From Spirochaetia bacterium (lineage in GTDB: Bacteria; Spirochaetota; Spirochaetia; UBA9216), in contig OY776510.1 of assembly GCA_963675665.1 (NCBI GenBank), positions 800,001 to 864,000 of the forward strand: 64,000 nucleotides of DNA. The letters are read 5' to 3'. Within the stretch, counting starts at the first letter, position 1; each line of letters starts with the position of its first letter. The notes under the pieces were generated by a model that ran no database searches, was not told where the DNA came from, and worked only from the letters and a program-made list of their open reading frames with translations. This document shows, piece after piece, positions 2,277 to 24,703 of this stretch. Made by a program: the position numbers and the translations under genes.

Positions 2277-4034
2277 TTAAGTTCCTATAAATAGTTCATC
2301 TTTATTGATTTCATTAAGATTACCATTTTTAATTTCATAGATATATTCACAGTTTCGTAAAGTAGAAACTCTATGCGCAACAATTATAATTGTCTTCTTA
2401 TTCATAAGAAAATCAATCGATTGAGAAATTTCCATTTCTGTTTTGGAATCCAATGCAGACGTAGCCTCATCAAACACCAATATCTCAGGGTTCCTATATA
2501 ACGCACGAGCAATACCTATTCTTTGTCTTTGCCCTCCTGATAGCCTAGTTCCCCGATCTCCTATCTTAGTATTTAGACCATCTGGTAAACTCTTTATTAA
2601 ATCATCCAATCTGGCCATCTTTATTACATTCTCTATTTGCTCCTGGTCAATATCACTCTCTTCAATCCCAAAAGCAATATTTGATTTTATACTGTCATCT
2701 GTTAAATAAATATCTTGGGGAACGAACCCTAATATTTTCATCCAGGAATCATGATGTTCCAGAGTACTGTATCCATCAATTAAAATATCACCAGAGGTTG
2801 GATATAATAAGCCAAGAATAATATTCATAAATGTTGTCTTTCCTGAACCAGAAGGGCCAATGAACCCTATTGCCGTGTTACGTTTAATCTTCAGATTAAC
2901 ATTATTTAATACAATATCTCCTTCATGTTTTGGATAATAAAAATCAAGATTCTTGAAATATATTTCTTTTAAATTACCAAAATCAACATTTTTATTTTCC
3001 AATTGTCTAGATATTTTATAATCTTCTAAATTATTAAACGCTTTATAAACGGTATCCAGTGCTACTTTTGAATATCTTATCTGAATAATACCTGCCATCA
3101 AACGATTAATTGCCGGCATTACCTTAAACATTGCCGCACCATACAAGGCTAAAATAGGAAAAAATGTGGTAAAATCTTTATTCCTTGCTATAATTATCAG
3201 AATAAAAACCATCATTACAATGATTGCACTACTTTCAATTATCAATTTTGGTAATTTTCCAACTATATCATTGTAAACAGAACTTTCTCTTAGTTTTTTA
3301 TAACTTTTTCTGCTTTTATTTAAAAAATAACTATACCTGTTCAATATTTTTAAATCTTTAATTCCCCCAATGCCCTGATTTATCCACTTTAATGTTTCGG
3401 ATTCATTTTCTTGCCTTATCTTACCAACTTCAGTTAAACGCTTTCTGATCTTTCTATAAAAAACAAAATTGATAAATCCGAGGATGCCAATAATTGTTAA
3501 CGTCCCTACAGGTTCAGTATATATTAATAACGTAAAAATTAATAATAAAAGAACTCCATCAGTTAGAACCAGAACTAGACAAGTAATAATTCGCTGAAAA
3601 ATAATCGGGATCTCGGTTTTTATATTTCTAACAATAATTGAAGGGTTTTCATTTAGAAAAAAGTAATAATCAGCTTTTAGATAACTATAAAACATTGATA
3701 CTGATAAATTTTCTATACCTCGATAATAGAAATTGTTCTGAAATAGCATAATCAATATTTGTAAAATCGTTTTAATTAAAATAAAAATAATTACAGCTAT
3801 ACATATTACTAACATTTTTTGAGAGAATGTGCTGGTGTTTATTAAAATAAAAAATTGATTCAACAATACATTTTCTTTTAGAATTTCCGGCTGAGTTAAA
3901 ACTTGAAAAATTGGCATAACACCTGCCACCAACAACAACTCTAAAATACTATAAAGAATTGATGTTAATACAAGAGGAATAGTACCTTTAATTTTATCTG
4001 ATTTAACCAGGATATATTTCAGTTTATGGAACAT
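2277..4034 (-). CDS. ABC transporter permease/ATPase, MsbA/PglK-like glycan flippase
   Basis: N-terminal TM domain, Walker A GPSGSGKT, LSGGQRQR, DEATSALD, AHR. Confidence 0.9.
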   Translation of the reverse strand: MFHKLKYILVKSDKIKGTIPLVLTSILYSILELLLVAGVMPIFQVLTQPEILKENVLLNQFFILINTSTFSQKMLVICIAVIIFILIKTILQILIMLFQNNFYYRGIENLSVSMFYSYLKADYYFFLNENPSIIVRNIKTEIPIIFQRIITCLVLVLTDGVLLLLIFTLLIYTEPVGTLTIIGILGFINFVFYRKIRKRLTEVGKIRQENESETLKWINQGIGGIKDLKILNRYSYFLNKSRKSYKKLRESSVYNDIVGKLPKLIIESSAIIVMMVFILIIIARNKDFTTFFPILALYGAAMFKVMPAINRLMAGIIQIRYSKVALDTVYKAFNNLEDYKISRQLENKNVDFGNLKEIYFKNLDFYYPKHEGDIVLNNVNLKIKRNTAIGFIGPSGSGKTTFMNIILGLLYPTSGDILIDGYSTLEHHDSWMKILGFVPQDIYLTDDSIKSNIAFGIEESDIDQEQIENVIKMARLDDLIKSLPDGLNTKIGDRGTRLSGGQRQRIGIARALYRNPEILVFDEATSALDSKTEMEISQSIDFLMNKKTIIIVAHRVSTLRNCEYIYEIKNGNLNEINKDELFIGT

Positions 4035-4067: not shown

Positions 4068-5336
4068 TTATTTTTCAAAAAAATAATCCTTAATCAAATC
4101 CGGTTTAAACTCTCGCCCCATATAACAATCGAGAAAAGCCTCCGAATCAATATGTAAATTCCCTTTTAAAACTTCATATAATTCACTTTCACTAAAAGTT
4201 GTTATTATGTTTTTATCAGATCCATCAAAAGGTGGTACAATTTTATAATTAAATAAATCATATCCCTTTTTACTACCATGAGGCTCAAAAACAATATAAT
4301 TCTTTCCAACAAGAAGGGTATTAAGAATTACAGTACTTGCAGGACCTATAACAATAGACGAATTATTTAACGATGTTTCTAAATTTAAATTATCAAAAGA
4401 ATAAAATTTTGTATCAATAACTCTCTTATACCATGCAATACTTTCTGAAGGATGCAATCTTAATATCGCACTTTTAACGCCTGCTTTTTTCAATGCGTTC
4501 TTTACAAGTTCTGTATATAAATAACTATTAATACAATGATCAATATTGTTTATTGTACTATCACTTATTGCTCCTGCAGCTACTTTCGTGACGACAAGAA
4601 CATTGCCTGATTCCATTTTAGCATTTTGTTTCTCTCGATTAATCTTAATCCTATCATTTATGGCAGGATGTCCAGTAACAATTATTTTATCACATGCAAC
4701 TCCTGCATCAATATAATTCTTTTTGATACTTTCACCCCAGACAAATAATTTATCCGCTCTATTGTCATCAATATTGTTATATCTTGCAGGGAGGCCATGT
4801 AAAAAAACTGCATTTGGTCTTTCTAATTCTGTAAAAATTTCAATGGATTTTTTCTCAAAAAAAGGAAGATCATATGGAACCAATAAAGCTTTAACATTTT
4901 GTTTATAATAACTATATAAAAAATCATAAATTCGATTTTTTAATAAAAGAAAATCTTCCGAAAAAAAATAATTAATATTATTATTGTTTAAGAAGCTTTT
5001 TAACTTTCTTAAGGATAGATATTTATCATCATACTGCCACGACTCCCAAATCGGTCTTTTAATTATTACACCCTCAAAACAATTAATATTTGATAAATCA
5101 ATATAGCTGTTTGATTGAATAACTTTACTTGTATATATAGGAACTTTTTTAGGATATAATGATAATGTATTTTTTATTACTAATTTTATATGATTCTTAA
5201 TTTTATTATGTATCGGGCGCTTAAAATAATCTCCCGATTGTATAAATTTTCTCGATATTTCATAAGAAAAATCCTTTAACTCTGTTCTCTCTGTATATAG
5301 AGCCTTTAAAGATTCGTTCATTTTATATTTTTCCAT
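4068..5336 (-). CDS. hypothetical protein, putative GT-B nonulosonate transferase
   Basis: HG, VWG, TGHP, RLHP and ST motifs resembling CDP-glycerol/sialyl-transferase-like GT-B proteins; directly follows pseI. Confidence 0.45.
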   Translation of the reverse strand: MEKYKMNESLKALYTERTELKDFSYEISRKFIQSGDYFKRPIHNKIKNHIKLVIKNTLSLYPKKVPIYTSKVIQSNSYIDLSNINCFEGVIIKRPIWESWQYDDKYLSLRKLKSFLNNNNINYFFSEDFLLLKNRIYDFLYSYYKQNVKALLVPYDLPFFEKKSIEIFTELERPNAVFLHGLPARYNNIDDNRADKLFVWGESIKKNYIDAGVACDKIIVTGHPAINDRIKINREKQNAKMESGNVLVVTKVAAGAISDSTINNIDHCINSYLYTELVKNALKKAGVKSAILRLHPSESIAWYKRVIDTKFYSFDNLNLETSLNNSSIVIGPASTVILNTLLVGKNYIVFEPHGSKKGYDLFNYKIVPPFDGSDKNIITTFSESELYEVLKGNLHIDSEAFLDCYMGREFKPDLIKDYFFEK

Positions 5337-6340
5337 TGTAAAGGACTTCCTTTTTTTAAATCACATTCAGCAGTTTTCCCTAAAATCCTTAACATGTGTT
5401 TTGGGTTTAAACCATCACCAGGTCTAATTGATCTAATATTTGTTTCGTTAAATTTATCTCCCTTTTTTATATCCTCTGTTACGAAAAGAGATCTTCTAAA
5501 CTGTCGATTTTTCTTCTTTTCATTATCCAAGCTATAAGATACACTTCCTATTGCCTTTTCTACATTACGAATAGATTCAACCATCTGCTTAAACTGTACA
5601 GGCTCAATAGAAAATTCGGAATCAACACCTCCATTATTACGATCAAGTATAAAATGTTTTTCTATCACCTGGGCACCCATTGCAACAGCTGCAATAGCAA
5701 CATCATTTACTAAAGAATGGTCAGATAATCCTACTTTTACACCAAAAGTCTCCATCATATTTACCATAGTCTTCAGATTAGCATCCGCTATTGGCGCAGG
5801 GTAACTTGAAGTACATTTTAATAATGTTATATCGTTATTGCCAACTTTTCTGCAAGCTTCGACAGCTTTTTGTATTTCACCTATTGTTGCTATTCCTGTC
5901 GACATAATCATAGGCTTTCCCTTCAAGGCTGTATATTCAATAAGAGGTATATCTCCAATCTCAAAAGATGCAATTTTATATGCAGGCATATCCAGTGATT
6001 CTAAAAAATCTACTGCTGTCTTATCGAAAGGCGAGGAAAAACAAATAAGATCTATACTTTCTGCATATTCCTTCAAAGATTCATGCCATTCCCATGGGGT
6101 ATAAGCTTCACTATATAATTTATATAAAGTAGTTCCATCCCACAAAGTGCCATGCTTAATTTGAAAGTATTCATTATCACAGTCAAGAGTTATAGTATCG
6201 GCAGTATATGTCTGGAGTTTTACAGCATCTGCACCAGCTTCTTTCATTGCACATATAGTTTCAATTGCTAATTTATAATCATGTGCATGGTTTGCAGAAA
6301 GTTCTGCAATTATTAACACAGAATTATTTTCTTTTTTCAT
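5318..6340 (-). CDS. pseI: pseudaminic acid synthase
   Basis: IIAELSANH, KLQTYTADTIT, YKIASFE, KCTSSYPAP, GLSDH, IEKHF and SAF tail; start placed at the ATG (6340) behind an AGGAG RBS. Confidence 0.93.
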   Translation of the reverse strand: MKKENNSVLIIAELSANHAHDYKLAIETICAMKEAGADAVKLQTYTADTITLDCDNEYFQIKHGTLWDGTTLYKLYSEAYTPWEWHESLKEYAESIDLICFSSPFDKTAVDFLESLDMPAYKIASFEIGDIPLIEYTALKGKPMIMSTGIATIGEIQKAVEACRKVGNNDITLLKCTSSYPAPIADANLKTMVNMMETFGVKVGLSDHSLVNDVAIAAVAMGAQVIEKHFILDRNNGGVDSEFSIEPVQFKQMVESIRNVEKAIGSVSYSLDNEKKKNRQFRRSLFVTEDIKKGDKFNETNIRSIRPGDGLNPKHMLRILGKTAECDLKKGSPLQWKNIK

Positions 6341-6350
6341 ATACTCTCCT

Positions 6351-8639
6351 TTATGAGCGTTTATCATAATACCAAACCTGCATAAATCCATCTTTATCAA
6401 CAATTGTACTTTCAGGAAGTTCCCAGTATGGGTTCCATTTAATTCTATCATCATATCGATAAGAAGTTTGTAACAAGATTCGACTATCTTCTCTTTTAAT
6501 TATACTTTTTTCATATAATGTTATTTTACCGATATCAGTCATTAACGCTAATTGAGGTTTTGCTCTTCCAGAAAGATATCCTGATGTTGTTAATTGTTTT
6601 ACTAATGATAAACTTTCATCGATTGTTGTTCTAAAATGCTCAGAACCTTTAATTGGAACACAGTGAAAAAGATAATGATTCTCTATTCCGAGATACCTCA
6701 TTTCATCACATACGTTTATTAATTCCTCTACAGAATTATTCACATCCTTTAATAAAACAGTCTGATTATAAATATTCACATATTCTCTAATTTTTAAAAA
6801 TGCTTCTTTTACCTCAGGAAAGAGTTCAACTGAATGATTTATTTGCGTTGCCATTTCAATCTGAAATGAATATTTTCTTTTAAAAAGGGAAAGAATGTTA
6901 TCATTAATTGCTGAGGGTTGATGAATTGGTATTCTGCTTGCGATTCTAACAATTTTTATATTATGAGGATGTCGTTCCAATTCATCTAAAAATCGAATTA
7001 TTTTCGAGGGTACAAGCAGAGGATCTCCTCCTGTAATTAATAATTCCCTAACATCTTCTAATTCTGGTAATTTGCTGATACTTCTAGCAATTCTGTTTAA
7101 ATCATCTTGCGATAACGCGAAAGGCGAATAGAATTGCCGAAGGCAATGTCTACAATTTGCCAGACATTGAAGCATTGGTTCAATAATCAATACTCTTCGA
7201 TATAATCGCTCCAATCCTAATAATCTTTTATTCTCAAACTCAAATAAGGAAGAGGCTTCATAATGTTTCAACATTGATTTTTCATTTCTTCTCTGATCTG
7301 GCGTTGTATTAATATAAAATTGATTTTTTAAAACTCTTTGTACTGTCGAATCAGAATTATTTTCTGCGTGCTTTAATTTATTTTGTACAAAAGGACTTAC
7401 CCTAAAACCAGATGTACCCTTTGCCCTCTTTTTAGAGTCTACTACAACCGTAACAATATCTTCAACTGTATTTATAAAATCTACAGCTTCATTCAAATCA
7501 TTAAATTCAAATGCCACAACACCTAAAGTATTGTCTCCTATAGAAAACTCATTTACTTCATCACCTACTTCAGCAATTTGATGTTCAAAAACAATCTTAT
7601 CAATATATTCAGATTTTACTTCATATCCGTTAAACAAACCTTCTTGGTAACTATTTAAAATGTATGACACTATTGGCTTTCGCGAATATTCTTTTTTAAC
7701 TAAATAACATTCTCCAAAGGCTGAATAAATCGAAGCTTCCGTCATATCAAATCCGGACGATAACTGTATCATATTAGGTACAAATATTCCTCCGTTACGT
7801 AGAGCAATGTCAATAATATAAATATCTTCACCAACTTTAAAGCCATCAAAATTGATACATCCACTATTTAAATTTAATTCAGTAATAATACTTTGAAACT
7901 GTTCATCCAAGTTTCTTTCTACTTCTTCATTAAAGACACCAGGAAAAATTTCGCCTACTGGCACATTAAATTTTGAATTTTTTTTAAAATAATTATGGCC
8001 ATAATAAGAAAATGCAATTTTACCATTTTGAAAGAATACATCTCCATCTAATTCCAACATTGTTTTATTTAATTTTTTCTCAATTATAATCTCTTTTGAC
8101 ATTGAATTATCAATTGCATATTTTAATGCTTTATTTAATTTATCTTGACAATCAATAATAGATTGACCTCTTGATCCTCCAGAATCAACAGGTTTAATAA
8201 TAATCTCTCCAGTCTTTTCCAAAAGATCATAAATATCTTTGACATTGGAATCTTCATTATAAACAATAAATTCTGGATAAGGTAATCCTATCCTTTTCTG
8301 CATATTTCTAAATTTGCCTTTGTCTTGTAATACAATAGCAGCTTCAATCGGATTTCCTGGTAACTGTAGCTTTTCAGCAACAAATGATACTGTTTCTACA
8401 GCCGCATTCGCTGCATATGTCATTATTGCATCAATCTTGTATTCGATAGCTGCCTCTAAAACTTTCTGCTTTTCTATAGTAGAAAGTTTTAAAGATAAAT
8501 CACTATAGCAATGTCCGATCTCTGTTAAATCTTTACTTACCGTTATAACTATGCAACCCAACTCTTTTGCTTTTTTTATTGCAGGTAACTGATAAGGAGA
8601 TGCTCCTAAAAACATTAATCTTTTAAATTTAAACTTCAC
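6351..8639 (-). CDS. ATP-grasp ligase fused to a KamA-family radical SAM 2,3-aminomutase-like domain
   Basis: N-half: LGASPYQLPAIKKAK, DKGKFR, IKPVDSGGSRG, IIEK. C-half: CLANCRHC, LITGGDPL, QINH, NQTVLL, EHFRT, GKI. GTG start with AAGGAG. Confidence 0.85.
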   Translation of the reverse strand: MKFKFKRLMFLGASPYQLPAIKKAKELGCIVITVSKDLTEIGHCYSDLSLKLSTIEKQKVLEAAIEYKIDAIMTYAANAAVETVSFVAEKLQLPGNPIEAAIVLQDKGKFRNMQKRIGLPYPEFIVYNEDSNVKDIYDLLEKTGEIIIKPVDSGGSRGQSIIDCQDKLNKALKYAIDNSMSKEIIIEKKLNKTMLELDGDVFFQNGKIAFSYYGHNYFKKNSKFNVPVGEIFPGVFNEEVERNLDEQFQSIITELNLNSGCINFDGFKVGEDIYIIDIALRNGGIFVPNMIQLSSGFDMTEASIYSAFGECYLVKKEYSRKPIVSYILNSYQEGLFNGYEVKSEYIDKIVFEHQIAEVGDEVNEFSIGDNTLGVVAFEFNDLNEAVDFINTVEDIVTVVVDSKKRAKGTSGFRVSPFVQNKLKHAENNSDSTVQRVLKNQFYINTTPDQRRNEKSMLKHYEASSLFEFENKRLLGLERLYRRVLIIEPMLQCLANCRHCLRQFYSPFALSQDDLNRIARSISKLPELEDVRELLITGGDPLLVPSKIIRFLDELERHPHNIKIVRIASRIPIHQPSAINDNILSLFKRKYSFQIEMATQINHSVELFPEVKEAFLKIREYVNIYNQTVLLKDVNNSVEELINVCDEMRYLGIENHYLFHCVPIKGSEHFRTTIDESLSLVKQLTTSGYLSGRAKPQLALMTDIGKITLYEKSIIKREDSRILLQTSYRYDDRIKWNPYWELPESTIVDKDGFMQVWYYDKRS

Positions 8640-8651
8640 GTATTACTCCTT

Positions 8652-9407
8652 TTATTCTATTATCTTTTTTAATAAAATAATATCTTTTTCGAAATCATCT
8701 AGATTCTCCATACTCTTTTTTCTTGTTTCAAGACTAATCTTTTTTTCTATATTGATAATTTTAAATATTTTTCTAAAATTTAAATTACCTTCTCCAATAT
8801 TTAAATGATCGTCATAAGGAGTCCTGGTATCGGTATCTGATAAATGGTACATCTCTGGAGCTAAAATGTTAAATTCTTTTATATAATTAAAATAATCTTT
8901 ATCATAAAAAATTGCGGCTGCTATCGCATGACCAATATCAAGAACAAATCCTACATTTGCTTCTTCAATAATAAATTTTATCTCATTTGGTTTTGCACCA
9001 ATAAAACTTAAATCCTCTCCAAAAACAATCGCCGGAACATTCTCTATTAATACTCGTTCGTCATTAAATAATAACAATTGTCGAACAGTTTCATCAATAT
9101 CACCATTGGCTTCACTATGTAAAATTATGTAGCGAGCATTTAGATTATCTGTAAAGAATCTAATCTCTTTTAGTATTGAACTATTATAATTTTCAAGATC
9201 TCTATCTGATAGATTAAAACCATATTCCAAATGAGTACCATGTACAATAATGGGGATATTAGTCATTTTCCATAAATTAATAGTCTCAAGACTATTTGGT
9301 ACATAATAAATTTCTAGAAAATTAAAAATTTTTTTTTCATATAAATTTATTATACAATTATAATAATTTATATTTGTAGACCATATTTTTAATCCAAATT
9401 CAGACAT
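8652..9407 (-). CDS. xylose-isomerase/AP-endonuclease-2-like TIM-barrel metalloenzyme
   Basis: IENVP, LDIGH, HLSD, DDHL and LET metal-binding pattern. Confidence 0.75.
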   Translation of the reverse strand: MSEFGLKIWSTNINYYNCIINLYEKKIFNFLEIYYVPNSLETINLWKMTNIPIIVHGTHLEYGFNLSDRDLENYNSSILKEIRFFTDNLNARYIILHSEANGDIDETVRQLLLFNDERVLIENVPAIVFGEDLSFIGAKPNEIKFIIEEANVGFVLDIGHAIAAAIFYDKDYFNYIKEFNILAPEMYHLSDTDTRTPYDDHLNIGEGNLNFRKIFKIINIEKKISLETRKKSMENLDDFEKDIILLKKIIE

Positions 9408-10072
9408 CTAAATAAAACCTCAGCTATAGCCCAATCCTCTAGCGTATCAATATCTCGGACTTTTGTTTCTGGCATTATATATCCATATGCTTTATCTGAT
9501 AATACTGTATCATTTTCTATAAAAGCTGAAATATTAAAAAAATAAAATAGTCCTGCATCGTGATACATTTCTTCTAGATCTTGAGATCTTAAATTGGCAT
9601 TTCTTTCATCATAAAATTTCACAATATTGTTCTTCAATTGAAATGCGCGCTGAATCGGAAAAGGATACTTTACGACAGGAATTACACTGTCATATTCTTC
9701 CAACTTCAAATATGAATCATTTAATATGACAGAATTGATAAATGGTGCTGTAGGTAAAAGACAACAGCAATATTTAAATTGTCTATTTTCATTATAATAA
9801 TATTTTATGACTTCATGTAGAACATCTTCTATAGTAGCAGAATCGTTACTATTAATTTTATTTCTTAGATAGGGAACACTTGCTCCATAACTTTTAGCAA
9901 TCTTAGAAATTTCTAACGTGTCTGTTGAAACCATAACCTCATCAAAAATATTCGAATTTAAAGCTGCTTCAATAGAATATGAAATAATTGGTCTTCCACA
10001 GAATTCCTTTATGTTTTTTTTAGGAATTCGTTTACTCCCACCTCTTGCAGGAATTATACAAATATTACTCAT
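9389..10072 (-). CDS. pseF: pseudaminic acid cytidylyltransferase (copy 2)
   Basis: IIPARGGSKRIPKKNIK, PTAPF, RSQDL, HDAG, DIDT. Confidence 0.9.
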   Translation of the reverse strand: MSNICIIPARGGSKRIPKKNIKEFCGRPIISYSIEAALNSNIFDEVMVSTDTLEISKIAKSYGASVPYLRNKINSNDSATIEDVLHEVIKYYYNENRQFKYCCCLLPTAPFINSVILNDSYLKLEEYDSVIPVVKYPFPIQRAFQLKNNIVKFYDERNANLRSQDLEEMYHDAGLFYFFNISAFIENDTVLSDKAYGYIMPETKVRDIDTLEDWAIAEVLFRCLNLD

Positions 10073-10081
10073 TATAACTGC

Positions 10082-10180
10082 CTATTTAGAATTAATTATA
10101 GTGCTTTTATTGTTTTCGCTTATTTTATCTATGTCCCTTTCTGATAGCTCTGAGAACAAAGACAATGATAAAGCTTGTTT
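10082..10180 (-). pseudogene. C-terminal remnant of a second PseC/DegT aminotransferase
   Basis: Reads KQALSLSLFSELSERDIDKISE..., matching the PseC tail ATLSLPLYPDLIKKEQDLVID; lies directly upstream of pseF copy 2. Confidence 0.6.
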
Positions 10181-10181
10181 T

Positions 10182-10979
10182 TTAGCCTCTAAGATATTTT
10201 TTAAAATCTTCTACAGAGATAGCATTATAGATAGGACTTTTATATCCTTCTGGAATAACATTAATAATTTGTACTCCGTTATTTTCACTTATTTCTTTCA
10301 ATATATTATGTTCATTTTCTGGTTGTTTTATTTCTAAATTTAATACTCTTTTCCTAAATTCTTCTGACTGATAAGGCTCATAAAAATGAAACCACTGATA
10401 TGGTTGAAGAGTATATCCTGCACCAATTAAAAATATTTTATCAAATCCCATATATATAGCAAGGCAGAGAAGGAAATATACTGTTCCTTTCATAAAAGGG
10501 CTTCTTTTACAAAAATCTATTTTTGTTTTTACTGTTATTGGATCTCTACTAGAAGCAAAGAAATACTTCTTAACATTTTTAAGTTCTTTATCATTTCTAA
10601 TATAAAAATAATTTGTATGATTTAATAAAAGTATAGTATCGTTAGAGCAGGCGTGTAATTTTTTTATCATAGTTTTTGAATGCTCTGAAAGATTTGTATA
10701 TCTCATCGTTTTATGAGCATTTTCAATGGAAGAATAGAACAAGGGCTTCATATTCTTAATGTCTTTATGTCGATAAAAATGATTACAAATAAAAGTCTTT
10801 TTATCTTTAAGTAAACTAAGATCGATATCATTTACAACGGGACCTGTTAAAAAAATATAACATTCCTGGTTAATAAATTTATTTTTTAAATTTATATTAT
10901 CTTTTAAAAGAACATAAATAAAAGGAAATGATACAAAATAATATAAATGCTTAATTATTGAAATAACAACTGATCTCAT
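10182..10979 (-). CDS. DUF115/Maf-like putative nonulosonate transferase
   Basis: CYIFLTGP, TFICNHF, LAIYMGFDKIFLIG and HFYE motifs. Confidence 0.7.
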   Translation of the reverse strand: MRSVVISIIKHLYYFVSFPFIYVLLKDNINLKNKFINQECYIFLTGPVVNDIDLSLLKDKKTFICNHFYRHKDIKNMKPLFYSSIENAHKTMRYTNLSEHSKTMIKKLHACSNDTILLLNHTNYFYIRNDKELKNVKKYFFASSRDPITVKTKIDFCKRSPFMKGTVYFLLCLAIYMGFDKIFLIGAGYTLQPYQWFHFYEPYQSEEFRKRVLNLEIKQPENEHNILKEISENNGVQIINVIPEGYKSPIYNAISVEDFKKYLRG

Positions 10980-10995
10980 ATAATCCTATATATCC

Positions 10996-11199
10996 TTAAT
11001 CTGTAGATATTGAAAACAATTCATTGTCGCAATTATTTGGTATGGTATCTGCTATATAGTTTTGTCTTTTAACTGAATCCTCACTACTGTCTATAATAGC
11101 TCTAATACATTCTTTCGCTATATTTATATCTTGATTATAATTAGCTTTAATTCCCGTTATTATAAATTTTTTATCCATCTTCTGTTTCCTTAAATTCAA
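10996..11199 (-). pseudogene. decayed N-terminal fragment of pseI
   Basis: FIITGIKANYNQDINIAKECI...SVKRQNYIADTIPNNCDNELF aligns with the intact PseI N-terminus (IIAELSANHAHD...AVKLQTYTADTITLDCDNEYF). Confidence 0.8.
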
Positions 11200-11233
11200 A
11201 TAGGTATAAAACTATATATTAATTAACTCCCTA

Positions 11234-11650
11234 TTAAATAGGTGGCAAAACAGTAGCATCACCTTCTATAACTATATCGCCGTTAGATTTTCTACAAGTT
11301 GTTTTTAATTTAACAATATTTTTTTCCTGAAATATTTCAATCACTTCAACTTCTGCCCTGATTGTATCACCAATAAAAACAGGTGCTGTAAATTTCAAAT
11401 TCTGTTCATAATATAATGTTCCAATACCTGGTAGTTTTGTTCCTATCACAGTTGAGATTAAACTAGCTGTTAATAATCCATGAGCAATACGGTTTTTAAA
11501 TCTTGATTCCTTACCAATCTCATCGTTAATATGGATCGGATTAAAATCTCCTGATATTCCCGAAAATAAACATATATCTGTTTCCGTTATTGTTTTTCCG
11601 AAAGAGGCTTTATCTCCAATTCTTAATTCATTTATTTTTTTTCCTGTCAT
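11234..11650 (-). CDS. MaoC-family (R)-specific enoyl-CoA hydratase
   Basis: SGDFNPIH, RIAHG, PVFIGDT. Confidence 0.9.
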   Translation of the reverse strand: MTGKKINELRIGDKASFGKTITETDICLFSGISGDFNPIHINDEIGKESRFKNRIAHGLLTASLISTVIGTKLPGIGTLYYEQNLKFTAPVFIGDTIRAEVEVIEIFQEKNIVKLKTTCRKSNGDIVIEGDATVLPPI

Positions 11651-11652
11651 AA

Positions 11653-12192
11653 TTATATAATTCCTATTTTAATATATTCCAGTTTCTTCTTCTTTTCTTC
11701 CCACTCAGCTTTTAGAATTCCCATTCTTACAACATCGAAATATTCATTATTTTTCTTGATTTGTTGCCTAAGAGTCCCTTCGACTGATGCTCCAAAATGT
11801 TCATGGATTTTTACAACTTTCTCATTAAATGATAAAACTTCGCAACACACTTTATTCATATTTAATTTATCAAAACAAAAATCATAATTATTGCATTCTA
11901 TTATCTTACCAACTCCTTTCCCTTGATAACCTCTCTCTGCAATATAATATGCCCAAAAACATGTTTCATTTTTTCTGTCTATAAAATTAACAGAATATAA
12001 CCCAATTGGATTTTTATCATACTCAATTATCCGATATATATTATTATCATCTTTCATACGTGAAAACCATTTCTTTTGATTTTCTAACGTTATATCAGGA
12101 TCAGTATACATATATTTTGTAACCTCTGGCAACATTCGCCAATTCATAATCATTTCTAAATCTGTATCAAAAATTTTTCGGAGTTTAACCAT
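11653..12192 (-). CDS. pseH: UDP-4-amino-4,6-dideoxy-AltNAc N-acyltransferase (GNAT)
   Basis: WRMLPEVTKYMYT, CEVLSFN; typical PseH size, inside the pse cluster. Confidence 0.8.
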   Translation of the reverse strand: MVKLRKIFDTDLEMIMNWRMLPEVTKYMYTDPDITLENQKKWFSRMKDDNNIYRIIEYDKNPIGLYSVNFIDRKNETCFWAYYIAERGYQGKGVGKIIECNNYDFCFDKLNMNKVCCEVLSFNEKVVKIHEHFGASVEGTLRQQIKKNNEYFDVVRMGILKAEWEEKKKKLEYIKIGII

Positions 12193-12199
12193 TCTCCAA

Positions 12200-12620
12200 T
12201 CTCCTTAAATATTTATAATCTAATTTAAAATATAATTATTTGAATTCACTATCCTTTTTGGTCTCAATACTTAATAATTTCTTTCCTGAAATTTTCAAAC
12301 GTTTTTAAAATATTGGGAATTTTCATTATCACAATGTAAAGTACTGCTCAGTTCGAAATTGTAAATATCATCGGAGAATTGATATATTACTAGTAATAAA
12401 TAATTAAATTTACTCAGCAATTCATCCTTATCATACTCCGAAATATTTGCGGTATATATTATTTATCCAATATCAAAATAAAACCACAAGAGATTTTATC
12501 TAAATTTTTTCAGATTTTCGGAAATATCATATGAATTAAAAAAATCCCGATTGACTAATTCAGCAGTTGACTCTATATTATTGTTATTCTTTGGCTATAT
12601 CTTTAATCTAAATAAAATAA
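12200..12620 (-). pseudogene. ORF-less gap at the usual pseG position, possibly a decayed pseG
   Basis: About 430 bp with no ORF between pseF and pseH; only weak fragments (NSYDISENLKK, ILILDK). Confidence 0.25.
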
Positions 12621-12625
12621 GAAAT

Positions 12626-13315
12626 TTAACTATTGAAATTACTCTGAAATTTCAGTTCTGCAAGAGTCCAATCTACATCTTTATCAATATCCTGAACCTC
12701 TAAAGAATCGTATTTAATATACGTTGTTTTGGGAACAATAAGTTTTTTATAATGTAATAACGATACAGTTCTAATAAAATAAAATTGACCTGCATCATGA
12801 TAGCAAGGTTCAAGATCTTGGGATCGTATTGTATAATTCTCCGGCCACTTCATTTGTATGAAACAGCCTTCTGAAATAAATGCTTTCTGAATAGGATACT
12901 CAAATTCAACAATAGGAATTATCGCATTAGCTGAAATTTTCATTAATTTATAATAAGCTTTATTTAATTTATCAGGAGTAATAAATGGTGCTGTCGGTAA
13001 AACACATGAAATAATATCGTATTCTATTCCTCTTAACATATATGAATTTATAACTTCAATCAGAACCTCCGCTAATCCTGCTGTATCATTCGAATTACAA
13101 TGACTTCTTAAAAAAGGAATTTTTGCACCGTATTTTCTTGAAATTCTTGCAATTTCTTCATCATCCGTTGAAACCATAATCTCATCAAAAATATTTGATC
13201 TTATTGCAGCTTCAATTGAATATGCTATTATTGGTTTTCCTAAAAAATCTTTTATATTCTTTCTGGGAATTCTTTTACTACCGCCTCGAGCAGGAATTAC
13301 ACAAAGTTTTTTCAT
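12626..13315 (-). CDS. pseF: pseudaminic acid cytidylyltransferase (copy 1)
   Basis: VIPARGGSKRIPRKNIK, PTAPF, RSQDL, HDAGQFY, QDID. Confidence 0.92.
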   Translation of the reverse strand: MKKLCVIPARGGSKRIPRKNIKDFLGKPIIAYSIEAAIRSNIFDEIMVSTDDEEIARISRKYGAKIPFLRSHCNSNDTAGLAEVLIEVINSYMLRGIEYDIISCVLPTAPFITPDKLNKAYYKLMKISANAIIPIVEFEYPIQKAFISEGCFIQMKWPENYTIRSQDLEPCYHDAGQFYFIRTVSLLHYKKLIVPKTTYIKYDSLEVQDIDKDVDWTLAELKFQSNFNS

Positions 13316-14464
13316 TTATACCCTACATATCGAAATGATTTTGTCGATAACTAAATCCTGTTCTTTTTTAATCAAATCAGGATATAACGGTAAACTTAGT
13401 GTCGCTTCATAATAATCTCTTGCATTTGGAGTATCATCAATTGTTGTCTTATAATTTTTCATATAATAAGGCTGAGAATTTACAGGGATATAATGAACTT
13501 GAGTTCCTATTCCTTCTTCAATTAGTTTAGTCATAAACTCAGAACGAGTAATATTCAATTCCTTAAAATTTATTTGAACAACATAAAGATGAAAACAGCT
13601 ATCTAGGAAATTCTCCTCATAGGGACAAATTATTGAACTAATAGAGGAAAATGCATTATTATAACGTCTTACTATTTCACGCCTTTTCTTTTTAAAAGAA
13701 TCAAGTTTATGTAATTGATTAATCCCGAGTGCTGCCTGCAACTCAGTCATCCGATAGTTACGACCAAGAATCTTCATTTCATAATACCAAGGCCCTGGAT
13801 TTTTTTCTAATAGTTCTGGTTTCTTTGTTATTCCATGATTTCTTAAAAGCAATAGTTGTTCATATAACATTTCATCATTTGTAGTAATAGCTCCACCTTC
13901 TGCTGTCGTTATTGTTTTCACAGGATGAAATGAGAAAACCGTCATGTCTGAATATTTACAACTTCCAACTCGATCACCGTCTTTATAGTTTGAACCAATT
14001 GCGTGCGAAGCATCCTCAATAATTCGTAAATTATTACCTTCTGTAATTTTTTTAAGGATTGGCATATTACAAGGTTGTCCTGCAAAATGAACAGGTATTA
14101 GCAACCTTGTTTTTATACTTATTTTGGATTTAACTGATTCTGGAGAAATATTATATGTTTTTTTATCAATATCTGCAAAAACAGGAACAATATCATTATA
14201 AATCATAGAGTTCGATGTCGCAACAAACGTATTTGGTGTTGTGATCCCTTCACAACCTTTTTCCAACATTAAAGCAGCAACAGAAATATCCAGAGCTGCT
14301 GTTCCATTTGAAACAACCACACAATATTTTGATCCGCAATACTGAGCAATTTTTTTTTCAAATTCTTCCACAACCGGCCCTTGTGTTAAATATGCTGCCT
14401 TTAAAATTTCTGTTACAGATTCAATATCTTGTTTATCAATTGACTGTTTTCCATATGAAATCAT
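13316..14464 (-). CDS. pseC: UDP-4-amino-4,6-dideoxy-AltNAc transaminase
   Basis: ISYGKQSI, LTQGP, EDASHA, FSFHPVKTITTAEGG, QVHYIPV. Confidence 0.93.
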   Translation of the reverse strand: MISYGKQSIDKQDIESVTEILKAAYLTQGPVVEEFEKKIAQYCGSKYCVVVSNGTAALDISVAALMLEKGCEGITTPNTFVATSNSMIYNDIVPVFADIDKKTYNISPESVKSKISIKTRLLIPVHFAGQPCNMPILKKITEGNNLRIIEDASHAIGSNYKDGDRVGSCKYSDMTVFSFHPVKTITTAEGGAITTNDEMLYEQLLLLRNHGITKKPELLEKNPGPWYYEMKILGRNYRMTELQAALGINQLHKLDSFKKKRREIVRRYNNAFSSISSIICPYEENFLDSCFHLYVVQINFKELNITRSEFMTKLIEEGIGTQVHYIPVNSQPYYMKNYKTTIDDTPNARDYYEATLSLPLYPDLIKKEQDLVIDKIISICRV

Positions 14465-14466
14465 AT

Positions 14467-15465
14467 TCAAACCTTAACCATTCTTTCCAATTCATTATCT
14501 ATCCAGACTTTTAACTCTTCTTGTGTCATCCACTTTTTATTATTACTGCTAGTATAAGAAAATCCTTCCGGAACTCTTTGTCCGTCTTTAATCCTATTTG
14601 CATCCTCTGACCACTTATGAATTGATGGTAATATTTTATAATATCCTTCATACTCATAAGTAAACATTGAATCTTCAGTACTAATCATTATTTCATGTAA
14701 CTTTTCACCAGGACGAATTCCAACATACTGGATTTCAGCTTCTGGAGCTATTGTCTTGGCTAAATCAATTACTTTCATTGAAGGAATTTTCTTTACATAG
14801 ATTTCTCCACCTTCGGCATCTTTAAAAGCTTTCCAGACCAGTTCCACACCTTGATCCAATGTAATCATAAATCTTGTCATTCTTTTATCCGTTACCGGTA
14901 AAATTCCTGTGTTTTTTAATTTCATAAAAAATGGTATTACCGATCCGCGACTTCCCATTACATTACCATAACGAACAACAGAAAATCTTGTACCGTGTTC
15001 ACCTGAATATGAATTTCCAGCAACAAAAAGTTTATCTGAAGCTAATTTCGTTGCTCCATATAAGTTAATCGGATTGCATGCCTTATCAGTACTTAATGCT
15101 ACAACTCTCTTAATATTTTTATCTATACATGCGTCTATTAAATTCATTGCACCAGTTATATTTGTTTTTATACACTCAAAAGGATTATATTCTGCTGTTG
15201 GTACTATTTTAGTTGCGGCGGCATGCACTACATAATCAACACCATCTAATGCCCGATATAATCTATCTTTATCACGTATATCACCAATAAAAAATCTTAA
15301 TCGTTTATCATTATTAAATCGTGCATTCATATTCCATTGTTTCATTTCATCTCTAGAATAAATAATAATCTTCTTTGGATTATATCTCTCCAATGTCATT
15401 TCAATAAATTTATGCCCGAAAGACCCTGTCCCTCCAGTAATTAGAATAGTTGAATTTGTTAACAT
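14467..15465 (-). CDS. pseB: UDP-GlcNAc 4,6-dehydratase (inverting)
   Basis: ITGGTGSFG, SRDEMKQ, VPTAEYNP, STDKA, YGATK, RYGNVMGSRGS, RPGEKLHE; GGAG RBS before ATG 15465. Confidence 0.95.
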   Translation of the reverse strand: MLTNSTILITGGTGSFGHKFIEMTLERYNPKKIIIYSRDEMKQWNMNARFNNDKRLRFFIGDIRDKDRLYRALDGVDYVVHAAATKIVPTAEYNPFECIKTNITGAMNLIDACIDKNIKRVVALSTDKACNPINLYGATKLASDKLFVAGNSYSGEHGTRFSVVRYGNVMGSRGSVIPFFMKLKNTGILPVTDKRMTRFMITLDQGVELVWKAFKDAEGGEIYVKKIPSMKVIDLAKTIAPEAEIQYVGIRPGEKLHEIMISTEDSMFTYEYEGYYKILPSIHKWSEDANRIKDGQRVPEGFSYTSSNNKKWMTQEELKVWIDNELERMVKV

Positions 15466-15491
15466 ACTGTTCTCCATAAACATCAGTTTCA

Positions 15492-15590
15492 TTATTTTCT
15501 AAAAAATTTATTAATTAATAATTCTAATAAAAACCCTACGACCAATGATATAATAATAATAAAGATTGTTATATCAAAAAAAGCTTCCAT
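15492..15590 (-). CDS. putative 32-aa single-pass membrane peptide
   Basis: MEAFFDITIFIIIISLVVGFLLELLINKFFRK*: one hydrophobic helix with a basic tail; below the ORF-track cutoff. Confidence 0.35.
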   Translation of the reverse strand: MEAFFDITIFIIIISLVVGFLLELLINKFFRK

Positions 15591-16000: not shown

Positions 16001-16228
16001 AAAGAAACTCCTAAGGTCTCTTACGAGCACAACAAGATTACTCTCACTCAAATATACAATATGAAGCTTTTTGGATTACAAATAAATATTTCTTTGACAA
16101 CCGCCTGACCAATTGTCCCGGCACCACCGGACAATAAAGGAGGAGTTATTTACTTCATCATCCAAAAAATAAAATTATTTTTAATGTCCGCATTAAGGAG
16201 TGGAGATCTTCTTCCAATTATCTTCAAA
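16001..16228 (-). pseudogene. frameshifted 5' fragment of a UDP-GlcNAc 4,6-dehydratase (polysaccharide biosynthesis protein)
   Basis: Across frameshifts reads LKIIGRRSPLLNADI / DEVNNSSFIV / GGAGTIGQAVVKEIFICNPK / LHIVYLSESNLVVLVRDLRS. Confidence 0.7.
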
Positions 16229-17266
16229 GATCCCCGTGTTATCCATATCCCCAGAAAGTTTTTCTGCGCCCGGACCATATCCATAAACCGGCACATCAAC
16301 TTCTGTATGATAATCCGTCCTCCAGGCAACTGTCGGAAGAGTTCCTTCTCCGTTGTTATTTATAACATCCAGTCCGCCTGTTTCATGATCGGCAGTTACA
16401 ATAAGCAAAATATCGTCCCGGGACCCAATCCAGTCAAGAACATCCTGTGCTGCATCAGAAAAAGCCTTTACCTCGAGCAGCATACGTTGTAAATCATTGG
16501 AATGACACGCATGATCTATCCGTCCGCCCTCAATCATCAGAAAAAACCCGTTATTGTTTTCATCAAGCAGATCGAGTGCTTTTAACAACATCTCTGAAAG
16601 CGTCGGATACTCACCCAAACCGTCATAAACATAAGGCATATGACCGTCGCCGAAAAGACCGCAAACCAATTCGCCCGACAGCGCATTCATTTCATCTTCG
16701 TTGGCGACGCTTTTGTAACCGGAAGTCTGCAACCATGCCATATCGATTCCGGCCGATGATCCGCCTCCGCCGAATACAACATTCGGTTTTGTCACAGTAA
16801 AAATTTCATCCGCAATCTGTGAATAATTAATCCGGCTGACATTATGCGAAGTAAAAGCTGCAGGGGTAGCATGAGAAACCATGGCTGTTGTCACAACACC
16901 CACGCTCTTGCCTTCTGATTTATACTGCTCAAGCACTGTTTCAAGATTACTGCCGTCGCCGGGAATCGCTTTGCTGATTACTCCGTTATTTACCTTCTGC
17001 CCGGTTGCCATGGCAGTTGCGGCAGCAGCGGAGTCGGTTATGCTGCTGTTTGCCGAGTATGTTGAAACAGAACCCTTTACAGGCAAAGATTCAAAACTCA
17101 TTTTGCCCTCTTCGCCGTAATAGTAAAAACTTGCAGCTTTAACCTGCTCATAGCCCATTCCGTCGCCAATCATCAGAATGACAGAAACAGGTGGATCAAA
17201 CCAGCTGCATGAAAAAAGAAACAGGCAGAGTGCCGATATGAATAAAAGCTTTTTAAAAGCTTTCAT
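16193..17266 (-). CDS. phoA: alkaline phosphatase, lipoprotein
   Basis: Lipobox FLFSC, IGDGMG, TDSAA, HATPA, EGGRIDH, TADHETGG. Confidence 0.92.
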   Translation of the reverse strand: MKAFKKLLFISALCLFLFSCSWFDPPVSVILMIGDGMGYEQVKAASFYYYGEEGKMSFESLPVKGSVSTYSANSSITDSAAAATAMATGQKVNNGVISKAIPGDGSNLETVLEQYKSEGKSVGVVTTAMVSHATPAAFTSHNVSRINYSQIADEIFTVTKPNVVFGGGGSSAGIDMAWLQTSGYKSVANEDEMNALSGELVCGLFGDGHMPYVYDGLGEYPTLSEMLLKALDLLDENNNGFFLMIEGGRIDHACHSNDLQRMLLEVKAFSDAAQDVLDWIGSRDDILLIVTADHETGGLDVINNNGEGTLPTVAWRTDYHTEVDVPVYGYGPGAEKLSGDMDNTGIFEDNWKKISTP

Positions 17267-17415: not shown

Positions 17416-18276
17416 CTACAACTCCCCGGCTTCTTTAATTCCCAGAAACCTGAAGATTTCCAGGGTGGCGCGAGATTTATTGAGCGTATAAAAATGTATG
17501 CCGTCGACGTTGTTTTCAAGCAGGTCGAGGCTCTGGTGCGTTGCCCAGTGAATACCGACACGCTCGGCGGCCTCATCCGTTGTTGTGCGGTTCATCGCCT
17601 TAATGAGTCCGGCCGGAATTCGTGCGCCGAGAGACAACTCAGCTATCCGTTCCATATTGCTCTTTGAAACAACCGGCATGATTCCCGCCTTGACAGGCAC
17701 ATTGATGCCCGCAATCTCGCAGCGCTCGCGGAAGTCGTAAAAATCGCGGTTGTCGAAGAAGAGCTGGGTGCATATGTAATCGGCGCCGCAGTCTACCTTC
17801 CTTTTAAGGTTATCGAGTTCAACAAGCCGGTTGGGCGTTGCCGGATGGCCTTCCGGAAAACCCGCCACTCCCACATTCATATGCGGGTAATTTTTCTTTA
17901 TAAACTCAACAAGTTCAGCCGCATATGTAAACCCGTTTGCAGGCGGCATGAAGTCAATCCCGCCGTTGGGAGGATCGCCGCGCAGGGCAAGTATATCGTG
18001 AATACCGAGCCGGTCATATTCATCAAGCAGGGCCTTTATCTCGGTCCGATCCATTCCCACGCATGTAAGATGACTTACTATCTTGAGAGGGGTTTCTTTC
18101 TTCAACCTCAGGATCGTGTCCTTGGTCAAATCGCGGGAAGAGCCCCCGGCGCCGAAGGTCATGCTTATATAGGAAGGGTTCAGCGGCATAAAGTCGGTTT
18201 TAACGCGCTCTATCAGATTATCCGAACCTTTCTGTGTTTTGGGAGGAAAGAATTCAAAACTTATTGTCGATTTCAT
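17416..18276 (-). CDS. metF: 5,10-methylenetetrahydrofolate reductase
   Basis: SFEFFPPK, TFGAGGS, HLTC, LALRGD, TQLFFD, HFYTLN. Confidence 0.95.
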   Translation of the reverse strand: MKSTISFEFFPPKTQKGSDNLIERVKTDFMPLNPSYISMTFGAGGSSRDLTKDTILRLKKETPLKIVSHLTCVGMDRTEIKALLDEYDRLGIHDILALRGDPPNGGIDFMPPANGFTYAAELVEFIKKNYPHMNVGVAGFPEGHPATPNRLVELDNLKRKVDCGADYICTQLFFDNRDFYDFRERCEIAGINVPVKAGIMPVVSKSNMERIAELSLGARIPAGLIKAMNRTTTDEAAERVGIHWATHQSLDLLENNVDGIHFYTLNKSRATLEIFRFLGIKEAGEL

Positions 18277-18447: not shown

Positions 18448-18816
18448 TTATTTAATAGGAAGAATTTTAACTCTGGACCGATTCTCATCAACCGTTATAA
18501 TTGCACCGGTTTTCAATTCATGATGGAAATCTTTTAATACCTTAAGAATCTCATTTATAAATAATTCTGTATACATATTTTGAGTTCTAACCTGAAGAAC
18601 ACTTGGTTTATTTGCTTTTGTCAATGCAAGCATAATTCCAAAATCCAAATCATGTGTAAAAACAATAAAATCATTATCTATTGCATAATCAAAGATCTCT
18701 GAATCCAGAGCATCAAATCTGCCTACAGAAGACCAGTGGGTAGCTTCATATCCATTCATCTCTAAAATTTTCGCCAATTCAGGAGATAAATTCATGTCAA
18801 GAAGGATTTTTAACAT
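18448..18816 (-). CDS. DUF5615 PIN-like toxin
   Basis: ILLDMNLSP, DSEI, FTHDLDFG. Confidence 0.85.
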   Translation of the reverse strand: MLKILLDMNLSPELAKILEMNGYEATHWSSVGRFDALDSEIFDYAIDNDFIVFTHDLDFGIMLALTKANKPSVLQVRTQNMYTELFINEILKVLKDFHHELKTGAIITVDENRSRVKILPIK

Positions 18817-19131: not shown

Positions 19132-19536
19132 TTAATCTGTAAAATCAACCTTTATATTCAATTCTTTACTTATCCGGCTTATTAAATCTTCAGTAAATTC
19201 AAGAATACTTTTAATTTCCTGCTTTTCGGGCAGGATCCTCTCTGAAACAGGATATGCTTCTGAAATATGATAGTCTGTTGCAATCGATAAATATCTTGAC
19301 TCGGTTTCATTAAGAATTATCTCTGTTTCAACATAATCAAATAGCTCAAATAAATCATGTGTTTTCAGTATTTTTTTATTTCTGTAAGCTGAAAAAGATT
19401 TCAGCGCAATCTCAATTGAATAGTGTAATTCAACTGCAATTACATCGGTATAATGATTTGCATTAAATAAAAGTCTGGCGGAACTAAAATGATGCCAAGC
19501 CTTTACAAGCCATTCTCTAGCTGCGGCTTCGTTCAT
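19132..19536 (-). CDS. HEPN domain protein
   Basis: EWLVKA, HYSIEIALK, KTHDL, AYP; overlaps the MNT gene. Confidence 0.85.
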   Translation of the reverse strand: MNEAAAREWLVKAWHHFSSARLLFNANHYTDVIAVELHYSIEIALKSFSAYRNKKILKTHDLFELFDYVETEIILNETESRYLSIATDYHISEAYPVSERILPEKQEIKSILEFTEDLISRISKELNIKVDFTD

Positions 19537-19852: not shown

Positions 19853-19898
19853 ATCTATTGTTATTATATCTCTCAAACTATGCAATTTAAAGCAGAAA

Positions 19899-24651: not shown

Positions 24652-24703
24652 TACCTTCTCCTTCCGTATCAACGTCCCGCATGAACACGGGCCGGGATTT
24701 AAA

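Follow-up and report, generated by a model that had tools for sequence, protein, structure and literature searches.

To our knowledge, every characterised member of the KamA family of radical S-adenosylmethionine (SAM) and pyridoxal 5'-phosphate (PLP) proteins is a 2,3-aminomutase. In the lysine 2,3-aminomutase (LAM) of Clostridium subterminale (PDB 2a5h), Arg134 binds the alpha-carboxylate of the substrate and Lys337 holds PLP. In the EpmB pathway, the beta-amino acid product passes to a dedicated ligase, EpmA. According to the accessible text of PMC3965090, two aspartates bind lysine in the lysine enzyme, and in glutamate 2,3-aminomutase a Lys and an Asn stand at these positions and bind glutamate. 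The same text, by the authors of SFLD, notes that the PLP-dependent radical-SAM subgroup contains unannotated clusters which are likely to have new functions. The curated specificities in the aminomutase family are only three, namely lysine, glutamate and arginine. Here we analysed a stretch of 64,000 nucleotides from a Spirochaetia bacterium (contig OY776510.1, positions 800,001 to 864,000 of the forward strand; hereafter the window). It holds an open reading frame (ORF) that joins an ATP-grasp ligase to a KamA-family radical-SAM/PLP aminomutase (6351..8639 of the window, minus strand, 762 aa, GTG start), next to genes for pseudaminic acid (Pse). We give about an even chance to the reading that an aminomutase of new specificity feeds a beta-amino acid to the fused ligase, which would N-acylate a Pse precursor.

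Domain architecture of the fusion protein

The span 6420-7260 (minus), in which a reading of the sequence alone had recognised an aminomutase, translates to residues ~461-740, in the C-terminal half of the 762-aa fusion ORF. The whole KamA-like aminomutase domain covers aa 403-762 (6354..7433, minus) and was assigned by the general family model TIGR00238, by 2a5h, and by an AlphaFold2 (AF2) model searched with Foldseek. Residues 473-722 align to residues 106-354 of 2a5h with an E-value of 1.3e-24 (phmmer, PDB sequences). The AF2 model of the domain has a predicted local distance difference test score (pLDDT) of 90.8 and a predicted template modelling score (pTM) of 0.90. Its best Foldseek match is also 2a5h (E 3.9e-20, TM-score 0.63-0.64), and the second is viperin (1.8e-06).

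The N-terminal 400 aa (7440..8639, minus) are predicted to be an ATP-grasp ligase domain, as judged by phmmer against PDB sequences. This half is similar to solved carboxylate-amine ligases over its whole length: PDB 4dim aligns across aa 4-398 (E 1.2e-14), the L-amino acid ligase 3vot matches with an E-value of 3.9e-05 and D-Ala-D-Ala ligases with 0.001. Ten residues of the ATP-grasp half (K149, D152, E187, E196, D198, N263, D265, R281, G283 and G284) are invariant in 55 homologues.

Catalytic residues and substrate pocket

The CxxxCxxC motif for the [4Fe-4S] cluster (C492, C496 and C499; 7143..7166, minus) corresponds to C125, C129 and C132 of 2a5h and is invariant in the homologues. The residues G537-G538-D539-P540 (7020..7031, minus) align to G170-G171-D172-A173 of LAM. 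The sequence-only reading had claimed that the Arg of HCLR and the Lys of DIGK are kept, and the alignment to 2a5h bears this out. R501 (7137..7139, minus) is equivalent to Arg134, and its column holds R in 244, K in 2 and a gap in 10 members of the 256-member clade described below. K705 (6525..6527, minus) is equivalent to the PLP-binding Lys337 and is Lys in 256 of 256 members. From these features the domain is predicted to be a KamA-family PLP/radical-SAM protein, with the cluster motif, carboxylate Arg and PLP Lys all retained, and to catalyse a 2,3-amino shift.

The residues for the distal end of lysine are replaced. YQCD of LAM becomes FHCV and PTFVVD becomes PQLALM, with V661 (6657..6659, minus) at the position of Asp293 and M700 (6540..6542, minus) at the position of Asp330, so both Asp positions are hydrophobic, just as the alignment by eye had suggested. 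The loop from M700 to K705 is two residues shorter than that from D330 to K337 in 2a5h. The pocket columns were reproduced in three further alignments made with MAFFT and hmmalign, and the four motifs and their codons were confirmed by translation. Among the fused homologues (n=55 aligned), no change is seen at V661, R501, K705 or the three cysteines, and M700 is conserved in at least 90%. In addition, Y624 (6768..6770, minus) stands where C. subterminale LAM has Gly256, and this clade-specific Tyr is found in 249 of the 256 members. We conjecture that Tyr624, together with the bulkier Val and Met, would make the pocket smaller and greasy.

Reference enzymes placed in the multiple alignment differ at these two columns. 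Two controls above the NCBIfam cut-off for lysine 2,3-aminomutase (P0064 and P0078) have D/D, E. coli EpmB has D/E, and a control above the glutamate 2,3-aminomutase cut-off (P0076, 680 versus 650 bits) has K/N. The V/M pair is thus unlike the Lys/Asn pattern of the glutamate enzyme, which had also been claimed from the sequence alone. With V661 and M700 in place of the two aspartates, and with the additional Y624, the substrate is expected to be neither lysine nor glutamate held in the manner of the K/N type. A neutral substrate is plausible from the pocket residues, and the most likely one would be an uncharged, probably small or aliphatic, L-amino acid.

Engineered enzymes provide a precedent. 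In the accessible text of PMC9850924, the alanine 2,3-aminomutases engineered by Cargill carry the active-site change D331G (B. subtilis) or D339H (Porphyromonas gingivalis). Going by the numbering, both are taken to be the Asp330 position. Such mutants show that an enzyme lacking this Asp can come to accept small, neutral substrates.

The domain also lies outside every curated model of the family. TIGR00238 matches with an E-value of 1.8e-40, and the score (138.9 bits) is under the cut-off of 199.2. Among the four equivalog models, the best for the window protein is TIGR04368 (glutamate 2,3-aminomutase), which gives 131.2 bits against a cut-off of 650. The other three are not reached either: TIGR03821 (EpmB) gives 123.2 versus 369.3, TIGR04468 (arginine 2,3-aminomutase) 122.1 versus 600, and TIGR03820 (lysine 2,3-aminomutase) 113.2 versus 525.4. 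For TIGR04468, the top sequence among all those collected (L074) has 358 bits against 600. Four clade members were scanned (P0090, L013, L058 and L023), which score 119-141 bits with TIGR00238 and, like the window protein, ~100-150 bits with every KamA-family model, under all cut-offs. The pocket residues of the named models are absent and all curated cut-offs are failed, and the catalytic features are present; together these point to an uncharacterised specificity class in a new domain fusion and a new pathway context.

Further residues set the clade apart from the lysine enzymes. These are H459, E477, R478, Y504, E595, Y624 and R648, as well as H655 (Tyr287 in 2a5h), H659, P662, K694, T701 and Y709. 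A conserved C-terminal extension (Y727, R732, W735, N736 and P742) is also the clade's own. Some of these residues bear on a different possibility, that the enzyme takes a basic substrate (lysine, ornithine, diaminobutyrate or arginine) held by other acids (E595 or D702, for instance). Two acids that do not vary in the clade, E595 and E477, stand where the lysine enzymes have W/Y/V and V/I/T, and many members are automatically annotated as lysine 2,3-aminomutase. These automatic names reflect family-level similarity only, E595 lies mid-strand in the AF2 model, four residues ahead of the strand end, and both classical positions are hydrophobic clade-wide while the sequences passing the lysine model and EpmB are acidic there. 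The sequence-only reading had itself allowed that D702, the Asp of TDIGK, might lie in the pocket. D702 is Asp in 203 of the 256 clade members, with S, A, Y, E, G or Q in the others; among the fused proteins, the position holds D, S, A, Y or G. A residue essential for binding a charged side chain should be invariant, so the case for D702 as the pocket acid is weakened, though not removed. Overall, we consider a basic substrate very unlikely, and an uncharged one is preferred.

Extent and distinctness of the clade

A word-indexed search collected 56 full-length fused relatives (750-999 aa, 41-66% identity, 97-100% coverage). A gene of 65% identity is carried by an Oceanispirochaeta strain. When the aminomutase domain was searched exhaustively with phmmer against 1.84 billion representatives, 2076 proteins matched at E ≤ 0.001, 34 of them at E ≤ 1e-30. 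In a locus scan with one genome per species, 78 loci were obtained and 65 were placed in the same clade as the window aminomutase. Most of these 65 loci encode a stand-alone protein of ~360-420 aa with 35-48% identity to the window aminomutase domain. The labels of the clade loci include Pelagibacteraceae, Nitrosopumilus, Omnitrophota, Hydrogenedentota and Streptomyces, and they cover many phyla.

When 434 sequences were aligned to one profile, both pocket columns were filled in 407. The pattern [V/I]/[M/L/I] with the short loop was found in 256, D/D with the long loop in 57, K/[N/T] in 14 and other combinations in 80; because the sequences were gathered by similarity to the query, these proportions say nothing about the whole family. 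In a quick maximum-likelihood tree of 71 rows (LG+G4, four long rows flagged), with the SH-like approximate likelihood ratio test (SH-aLRT) as the only support measure, the V/M clade was recovered with a support of 99. It falls inside a wider short-loop KamA-like group (99) that is separate from the enzymes for lysine and glutamate. All ten fused proteins in the tree group together (100), with stand-alone forms around them. The alignment and the tree indicate that the loss of both aspartates is a clade signature rather than an isolated change.

This conservation also bears on whether the aminomutase domain could be a decayed, non-catalytic relic that lost the aspartates together with its function. 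The score below the KamA family cut-off would fit such decay. Against it, conservation extends to the cluster cysteines, SAM-motif glycines, R501 and K705, the new pocket residues are themselves conserved over 256 sequences from many phyla, and the structural model is confident. We find the relic explanation hardly credible, and an active enzyme of changed specificity remains the preferred one.

Several collected sequences depart from the common form. One relative (P0013, 999 aa) is a fusion with an extra formyltransferase-type domain (PF00551), and another KamA-like protein (P0211, 651 aa) belongs to a further domain fusion. Four proteins of 822-850 aa (P0248, P0260, P0266 and P0303) have S/A at the two pocket columns, and the query matched them in two stretches. 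P0223 has V in place of the PLP lysine (GV for GK) and is possibly an inactive relative. At L065:9923-11016, the aminomutase is split in two overlapping ORFs, which is likely a frameshift or an assembly error.

Gene context in the window

The fusion gene is located in a low-GC island which occupies window positions 1 to 16100/16200. The GC content of the island is 26-34%, compared with 43-58% in the next 2 kb and 35-49% in the rest of the window. The edge is sharp near 16100-16200, just upstream of PseB, and the left end lies beyond the window. No tRNA was found at the island boundary or anywhere within window positions 1-30000. The island looks like a horizontally acquired glycan cluster, and its genes are all on the minus strand with short gaps or overlaps.

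PseB (14467-15492), PseC (13316-14470), a PseH-like GNAT (11653-12192), PseI and two copies of PseF occur together at window 5318-15492, and all score over their NCBIfam equivalog cut-offs. PseF copy 1 is at 12626-13315 and copy 2, a cytidylyltransferase, at 9389-10072 (TIGR03584, 283 bits versus 205.7). PseI, the pseudaminic acid synthase, is at 5318-6340 (TIGR03586, 506 bits versus 340). The TIGR03586 match starts at aa 46 of a long ORF, and the likely start is the ATG at 6340, which overlaps the stop codon of the fusion gene. A xylose-isomerase-like TIM-barrel protein (8652-9407, PF01261) is encoded 12 nt upstream of the fusion gene. Further island genes encode a MaoC-like hydratase assigned by family scan (11234-11650), a PglK-like ABC exporter (2277-4034), an NAD-dependent epimerase/dehydratase (151-1065), and three proteins with no Pfam or NCBIfam match, of 265 aa (10182-10979), 422 aa (4068-5336) and 404 aa (1058-2272). 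The last appears by eye to be a multi-pass membrane protein.

No window protein matched a PseG or GT28 model. One of the three cluster ORFs without a family, or the TIM-barrel protein, may fill the PseG role. The TIM-barrel protein recurs in relatives, directly upstream of the fused gene in the window and at L001:7034-7822, and near PseI at L018:18906-19682. In L001, a weak Capsule_synth match was obtained for the gene that lies downstream of PseI. The two paralogues of PseF, the synthetase of cytidine monophosphate (CMP)-pseudaminic acid, may activate two differently acylated forms of Pse. The MaoC-like (R)-hydratase gene directly downstream of the PseH-like GNAT suggests that a hydroxyacyl donor, for example 3-hydroxybutyryl, serves a second N-acylation; none of the 65 related loci was found to have a MaoC homologue. 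Among the translated ORFs of window positions 1-24000, no efp or epmA neighbour was found.

Beyond the island, a few genes of host GC content were recognised by eye, namely an alkaline phosphatase (16193-17266), a MetF-like reductase (17416-18276), a CysN/CysC fusion (21959-23770) and CysD (23770-24672). A HEPN-domain-like protein (19132-19536) and a minimal nucleotidyltransferase-like protein (19517-20065, GSYAYG...DSDIDL), also noted by eye, are a candidate toxin-antitoxin-like module, and a 122-aa ORF (18448-18816) lies near this pair.

Gene context in relatives

One or more Pse-like genes were found in the fetched flanks of 35 of the 65 clade loci, and 22 of the 65 have a NeuB/PseI-like gene. 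Clustering of the neighbours revealed two further partners of the aminomutase. A PaaK-like adenylating ligase (~440 aa, AMP-binding and AMP-binding_C_2) occurs in 24 of the 65 loci and a hexapeptide acyltransferase (~300 aa) in 28, and both are present in 23. The usual order is ligase, acyltransferase, stand-alone aminomutase, and then often NeuB/PseI. The PaaK-like ligase was found in none of the ten loci in which an ATP-grasp is fused to the aminomutase or is a separate neighbour (L001-L005, L007, L029, L032, L039 and L040). Two unrelated systems for acyl activation thus stand in for each other, a clear instance of non-orthologous replacement. The alternation between the ATP-grasp and the pair of ligase and acyltransferase is the main reason to take the aminomutase product as an acyl donor.

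The same arrangement helps to order the two reactions. The ATP-grasp domain might first link the amino acid to the sugar through its side chain, with isomerisation following on the sugar-bound form, or the aminomutase domain might carry out another PLP-radical reaction. An uncharged hydrophobic distal pocket would suit an amide-linked side chain as well, a two-domain fusion permits either reaction sequence, and the clade's C-terminal extension is conserved (Y727, R732, W735, N736 and P742). On the other hand, most members are stand-alone proteins beside an adenylating ligase and an acyl-CoA-type acyltransferase, which fits a free acid activated after isomerisation, and the retention of R501 and K705 is what one would expect of a substrate with a free alpha-amino acid head group. 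A reversed order or a different radical reaction is quite unlikely, and isomerisation of the free amino acid before ligation is preferred.

The locus L032 suggests which amine could be acylated. Its order is PseB, PseC, methyltransferase, PseF-like, methyltransferase, WbqC-like, PseG-like, fusion and PseI, with the GT28-like (PseG-like) gene directly upstream of the fused gene. No GNAT lies within this run, so the fusion occupies the usual place of PseH. From this position, the acceptor would be the 4-amino group on the PseC product; since the window has a PseH-like gene, this is a lead only.

Not every clade member appears to serve a sugar. In Streptomyces, L013:10007-13620 (also L012, L014 and L027) combines the aminomutase with a PGM1-like ATP-grasp ligase and an MFS exporter, and this cassette is a candidate cluster for a small beta-amino-acid peptide. 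In another Streptomyces locus (L056), an ATP-grasp_4 protein, a TauD-like oxygenase, an L-amino-acid-ligase-like protein and an MFS exporter lie beside the aminomutase. In the actinomycete loci L054 and L063, the clade aminomutase is found within polyketide synthase (PKS) or nonribosomal peptide synthetase (NRPS) loci. A third way of handling the aminomutase product is seen in Pelagibacteraceae (L058:2368-18324), where PseB, PseC, a GNAT, PseI, an aldo-keto reductase, a cytidylyltransferase-aminotransferase fusion and the aminomutase are accompanied by an aminoglycoside-N-acetyltransferase-like protein, an NRPS-type adenylation enzyme, a DUF4910 aminopeptidase-like protein and a TauD oxygenase. 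The top PDB matches of this adenylation enzyme are ordinary NRPS adenylation domains (linear gramicidin synthase, 1.9e-111). It was considered as a clue to the beta-amino acid and set aside, as 7dq5, which bears a beta-aminoacyl-ACP synthetase label, matches with only 2.4e-34. Across these loci, the product of the clade enzyme is in every case ligated to something further, which need not be a sugar.

The actinomycete loci are also where glutamate, the main rival to a neutral substrate, has to be weighed. The aminomutase could convert L-glutamate to beta-glutamate, with the gamma-carboxylate bound in a manner unlike that of the K/N type, and a beta-glutamyl group or a derivative of it would then be ligated. 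A glutamyl-type N-acyl group is present on a related sugar of Clostridium botulinum flagellin. The conserved His655, His659 and Tyr624 could in principle bind a carboxylate, the top equivalog model is that of glutamate 2,3-aminomutase (131 bits, far under the cut-off of 650), and actinomycete clade members occur in PKS/NRPS loci (L054 and L063). According to the accessible text of PMC11284099, the radical-SAM protein IdnL4 is genetically required for the beta-glutamate-derived 3-aminobutyrate of incednine, and activity in vitro was not seen. The pocket residues of IdnL4 are not given in the accessible text of PMC11284099, PMC10662134 and PMC9169493, and the name IdnL4 is absent among 126 homologues found from a Saccharopolyspora clade member. 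Against glutamate, the two pocket columns have neither Lys nor Asn, and the sole sequence passing the glutamate model has K/N. Furthermore, a PLP decarboxylase of the incednine type was not found beside the clade members in L054, L049, L063, L062 and L056, in a scan where ORF calling at high GC was noisy and many ORFs had no Pfam hit. We therefore regard glutamate as unlikely and continue with an uncharged substrate.

Proposed function

From the architecture, the motifs, the conserved pocket replacement, the gene context and the alternation, we infer the chemical steps, the substrate class and the acceptor as follows. The [4Fe-4S] cluster on C492, C496 and C499 would cleave SAM. The alpha-amine of the substrate would form an aldimine with the PLP held by K705, its carboxylate would be held by R501, and the amine would shift from C2 to C3. 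The substrate of this step would be a free L-amino acid whose side chain is uncharged. The ATP-grasp domain would then turn the carboxylate of the beta-amino acid into an acyl phosphate, and the acyl group would be joined to an amine of a Pse precursor. This amine is most likely the 4-amino group on the PseC product, the later N7 of Pse. PseI and PseF would finish a CMP-activated N-(beta-aminoacyl)-Pse for a surface polysaccharide, with export by the PglK-like ABC transporter.

Several observations weigh against this pathway. Every match of the fusion protein to the Pfam ATP-grasp families is under the gathering cut-off (PF14397, 23.8 bits versus 31.4; PF07478, 19.2 versus 24; PF02786, 18.0 versus 19.8). 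In the aminomutase domain, E477, E595, R648 and K694 are new clade-invariant charged residues which, like D702, might reach the substrate. As the window also has a PseH-like GNAT, no vacant step in its pathway shows which amine is the acceptor. In 30 of the 65 clade loci, none of the Pse-like genes was found in the fetched flanks and some of these are PKS/NRPS or peptide-ligase loci, so the link to the sugar does not cover the whole clade. The fused relatives and homologues are named only 'hypothetical', 'radical SAM protein' or, automatically, 'lysine 2,3-aminomutase'. A full-text literature search, partly judged from abstracts, found nothing that links nonulosonic acids, Pse included, to a beta-aminoacyl group or to a 2,3-aminomutase; the papers retrieved that mention an aminomutase deal with other enzymes.

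The full-text search, with subscription papers outside its scope, also found no description of the aminomutase clade or of its fusion to an ATP-grasp domain. The Shewanella sfm cluster was considered as a precedent and rejected; an ATP-grasp gene is present there and an aminomutase is absent.

A broader claim can be made only tentatively. No radical-SAM 2,3-aminomutase from nature would have been known before to act on an uncharged amino acid; possible conversions are those of L-alanine to beta-alanine, of 2-aminobutyrate to 3-aminobutyrate and of leucine to beta-leucine. The enzyme would found a fourth class beside the lysine, glutamate and arginine enzymes in a clade spread over many phyla, which would supply an undescribed N-(beta-aminoacyl) decoration of Pse and related nonulosonic acids as well as beta-amino acid units for small peptides and polyketides of actinomycetes. 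If true, a natural neutral-amino-acid aminomutase would add a fourth specificity class to the three curated ones. It would also be a starting point for beta-amino-acid biocatalysis, which so far rests on engineered lysine enzymes, according to the accessible text of PMC9850924. For glycobiology, the pathway predicts a new acyl decoration on pseudaminic-type sugars and provides a search signature: an aminomutase with an ATP-grasp, or with a PaaK-like ligase and a hexapeptide transferase, beside NeuB/PseI. This signature is found in abundant, poorly studied microbes, and the alternation of the acyl-activating systems makes the pathway directly testable. The sequence-only reading had presented the enzyme as one of biotechnological interest; it had missed the ATP-grasp fusion and the pseudaminic context, and this context makes glycan tailoring a likelier role than that of a free-standing enzyme of catabolism or biotechnology.

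Comparison with known systems

Compared with lysine 2,3-aminomutase (KamA/AblA, 2a5h), the aminomutase domain has the common fold, the CxxxCxxC motif, the equivalents of Arg134 and Lys337, and the GGD motif. The identity is ~21-27%. The differences are Asp293 to Val, Asp330 to Met, Gly256 to Tyr and Tyr287 to His, the loop shortened by two residues, the clade's own C-terminal extension and the added ATP-grasp domain. Glutamate 2,3-aminomutase (TIGR04368) is alike in family and catalytic motifs, whereas its pocket has K/N where the fusion has V/M. The engineered alanine 2,3-aminomutase is a laboratory mutant with one key change; in contrast, the clade of the fusion protein is natural and old, with both aspartates replaced and further changes in the pocket.

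On the acylation side, we know of no ATP-grasp enzyme that acylates a Pse precursor. PseH, the hexapeptide N-acyltransferases and the ATP-grasp amide ligases (3vot and PGM1-type) all put an acyl group on an amine, as the fusion is proposed to do. The acyl donor of PseH is acetyl-CoA, and the acceptor of the fusion is suggested by gene context alone. EpmB (YjeK), which functions in the beta-lysylation of elongation factor P in E. coli, belongs to the same family and follows the same logic of an aminomutase plus a ligase. In that pathway, however, the ligase is encoded by a separate gene and is a tRNA-synthetase paralogue, and the target is a protein, not a sugar.

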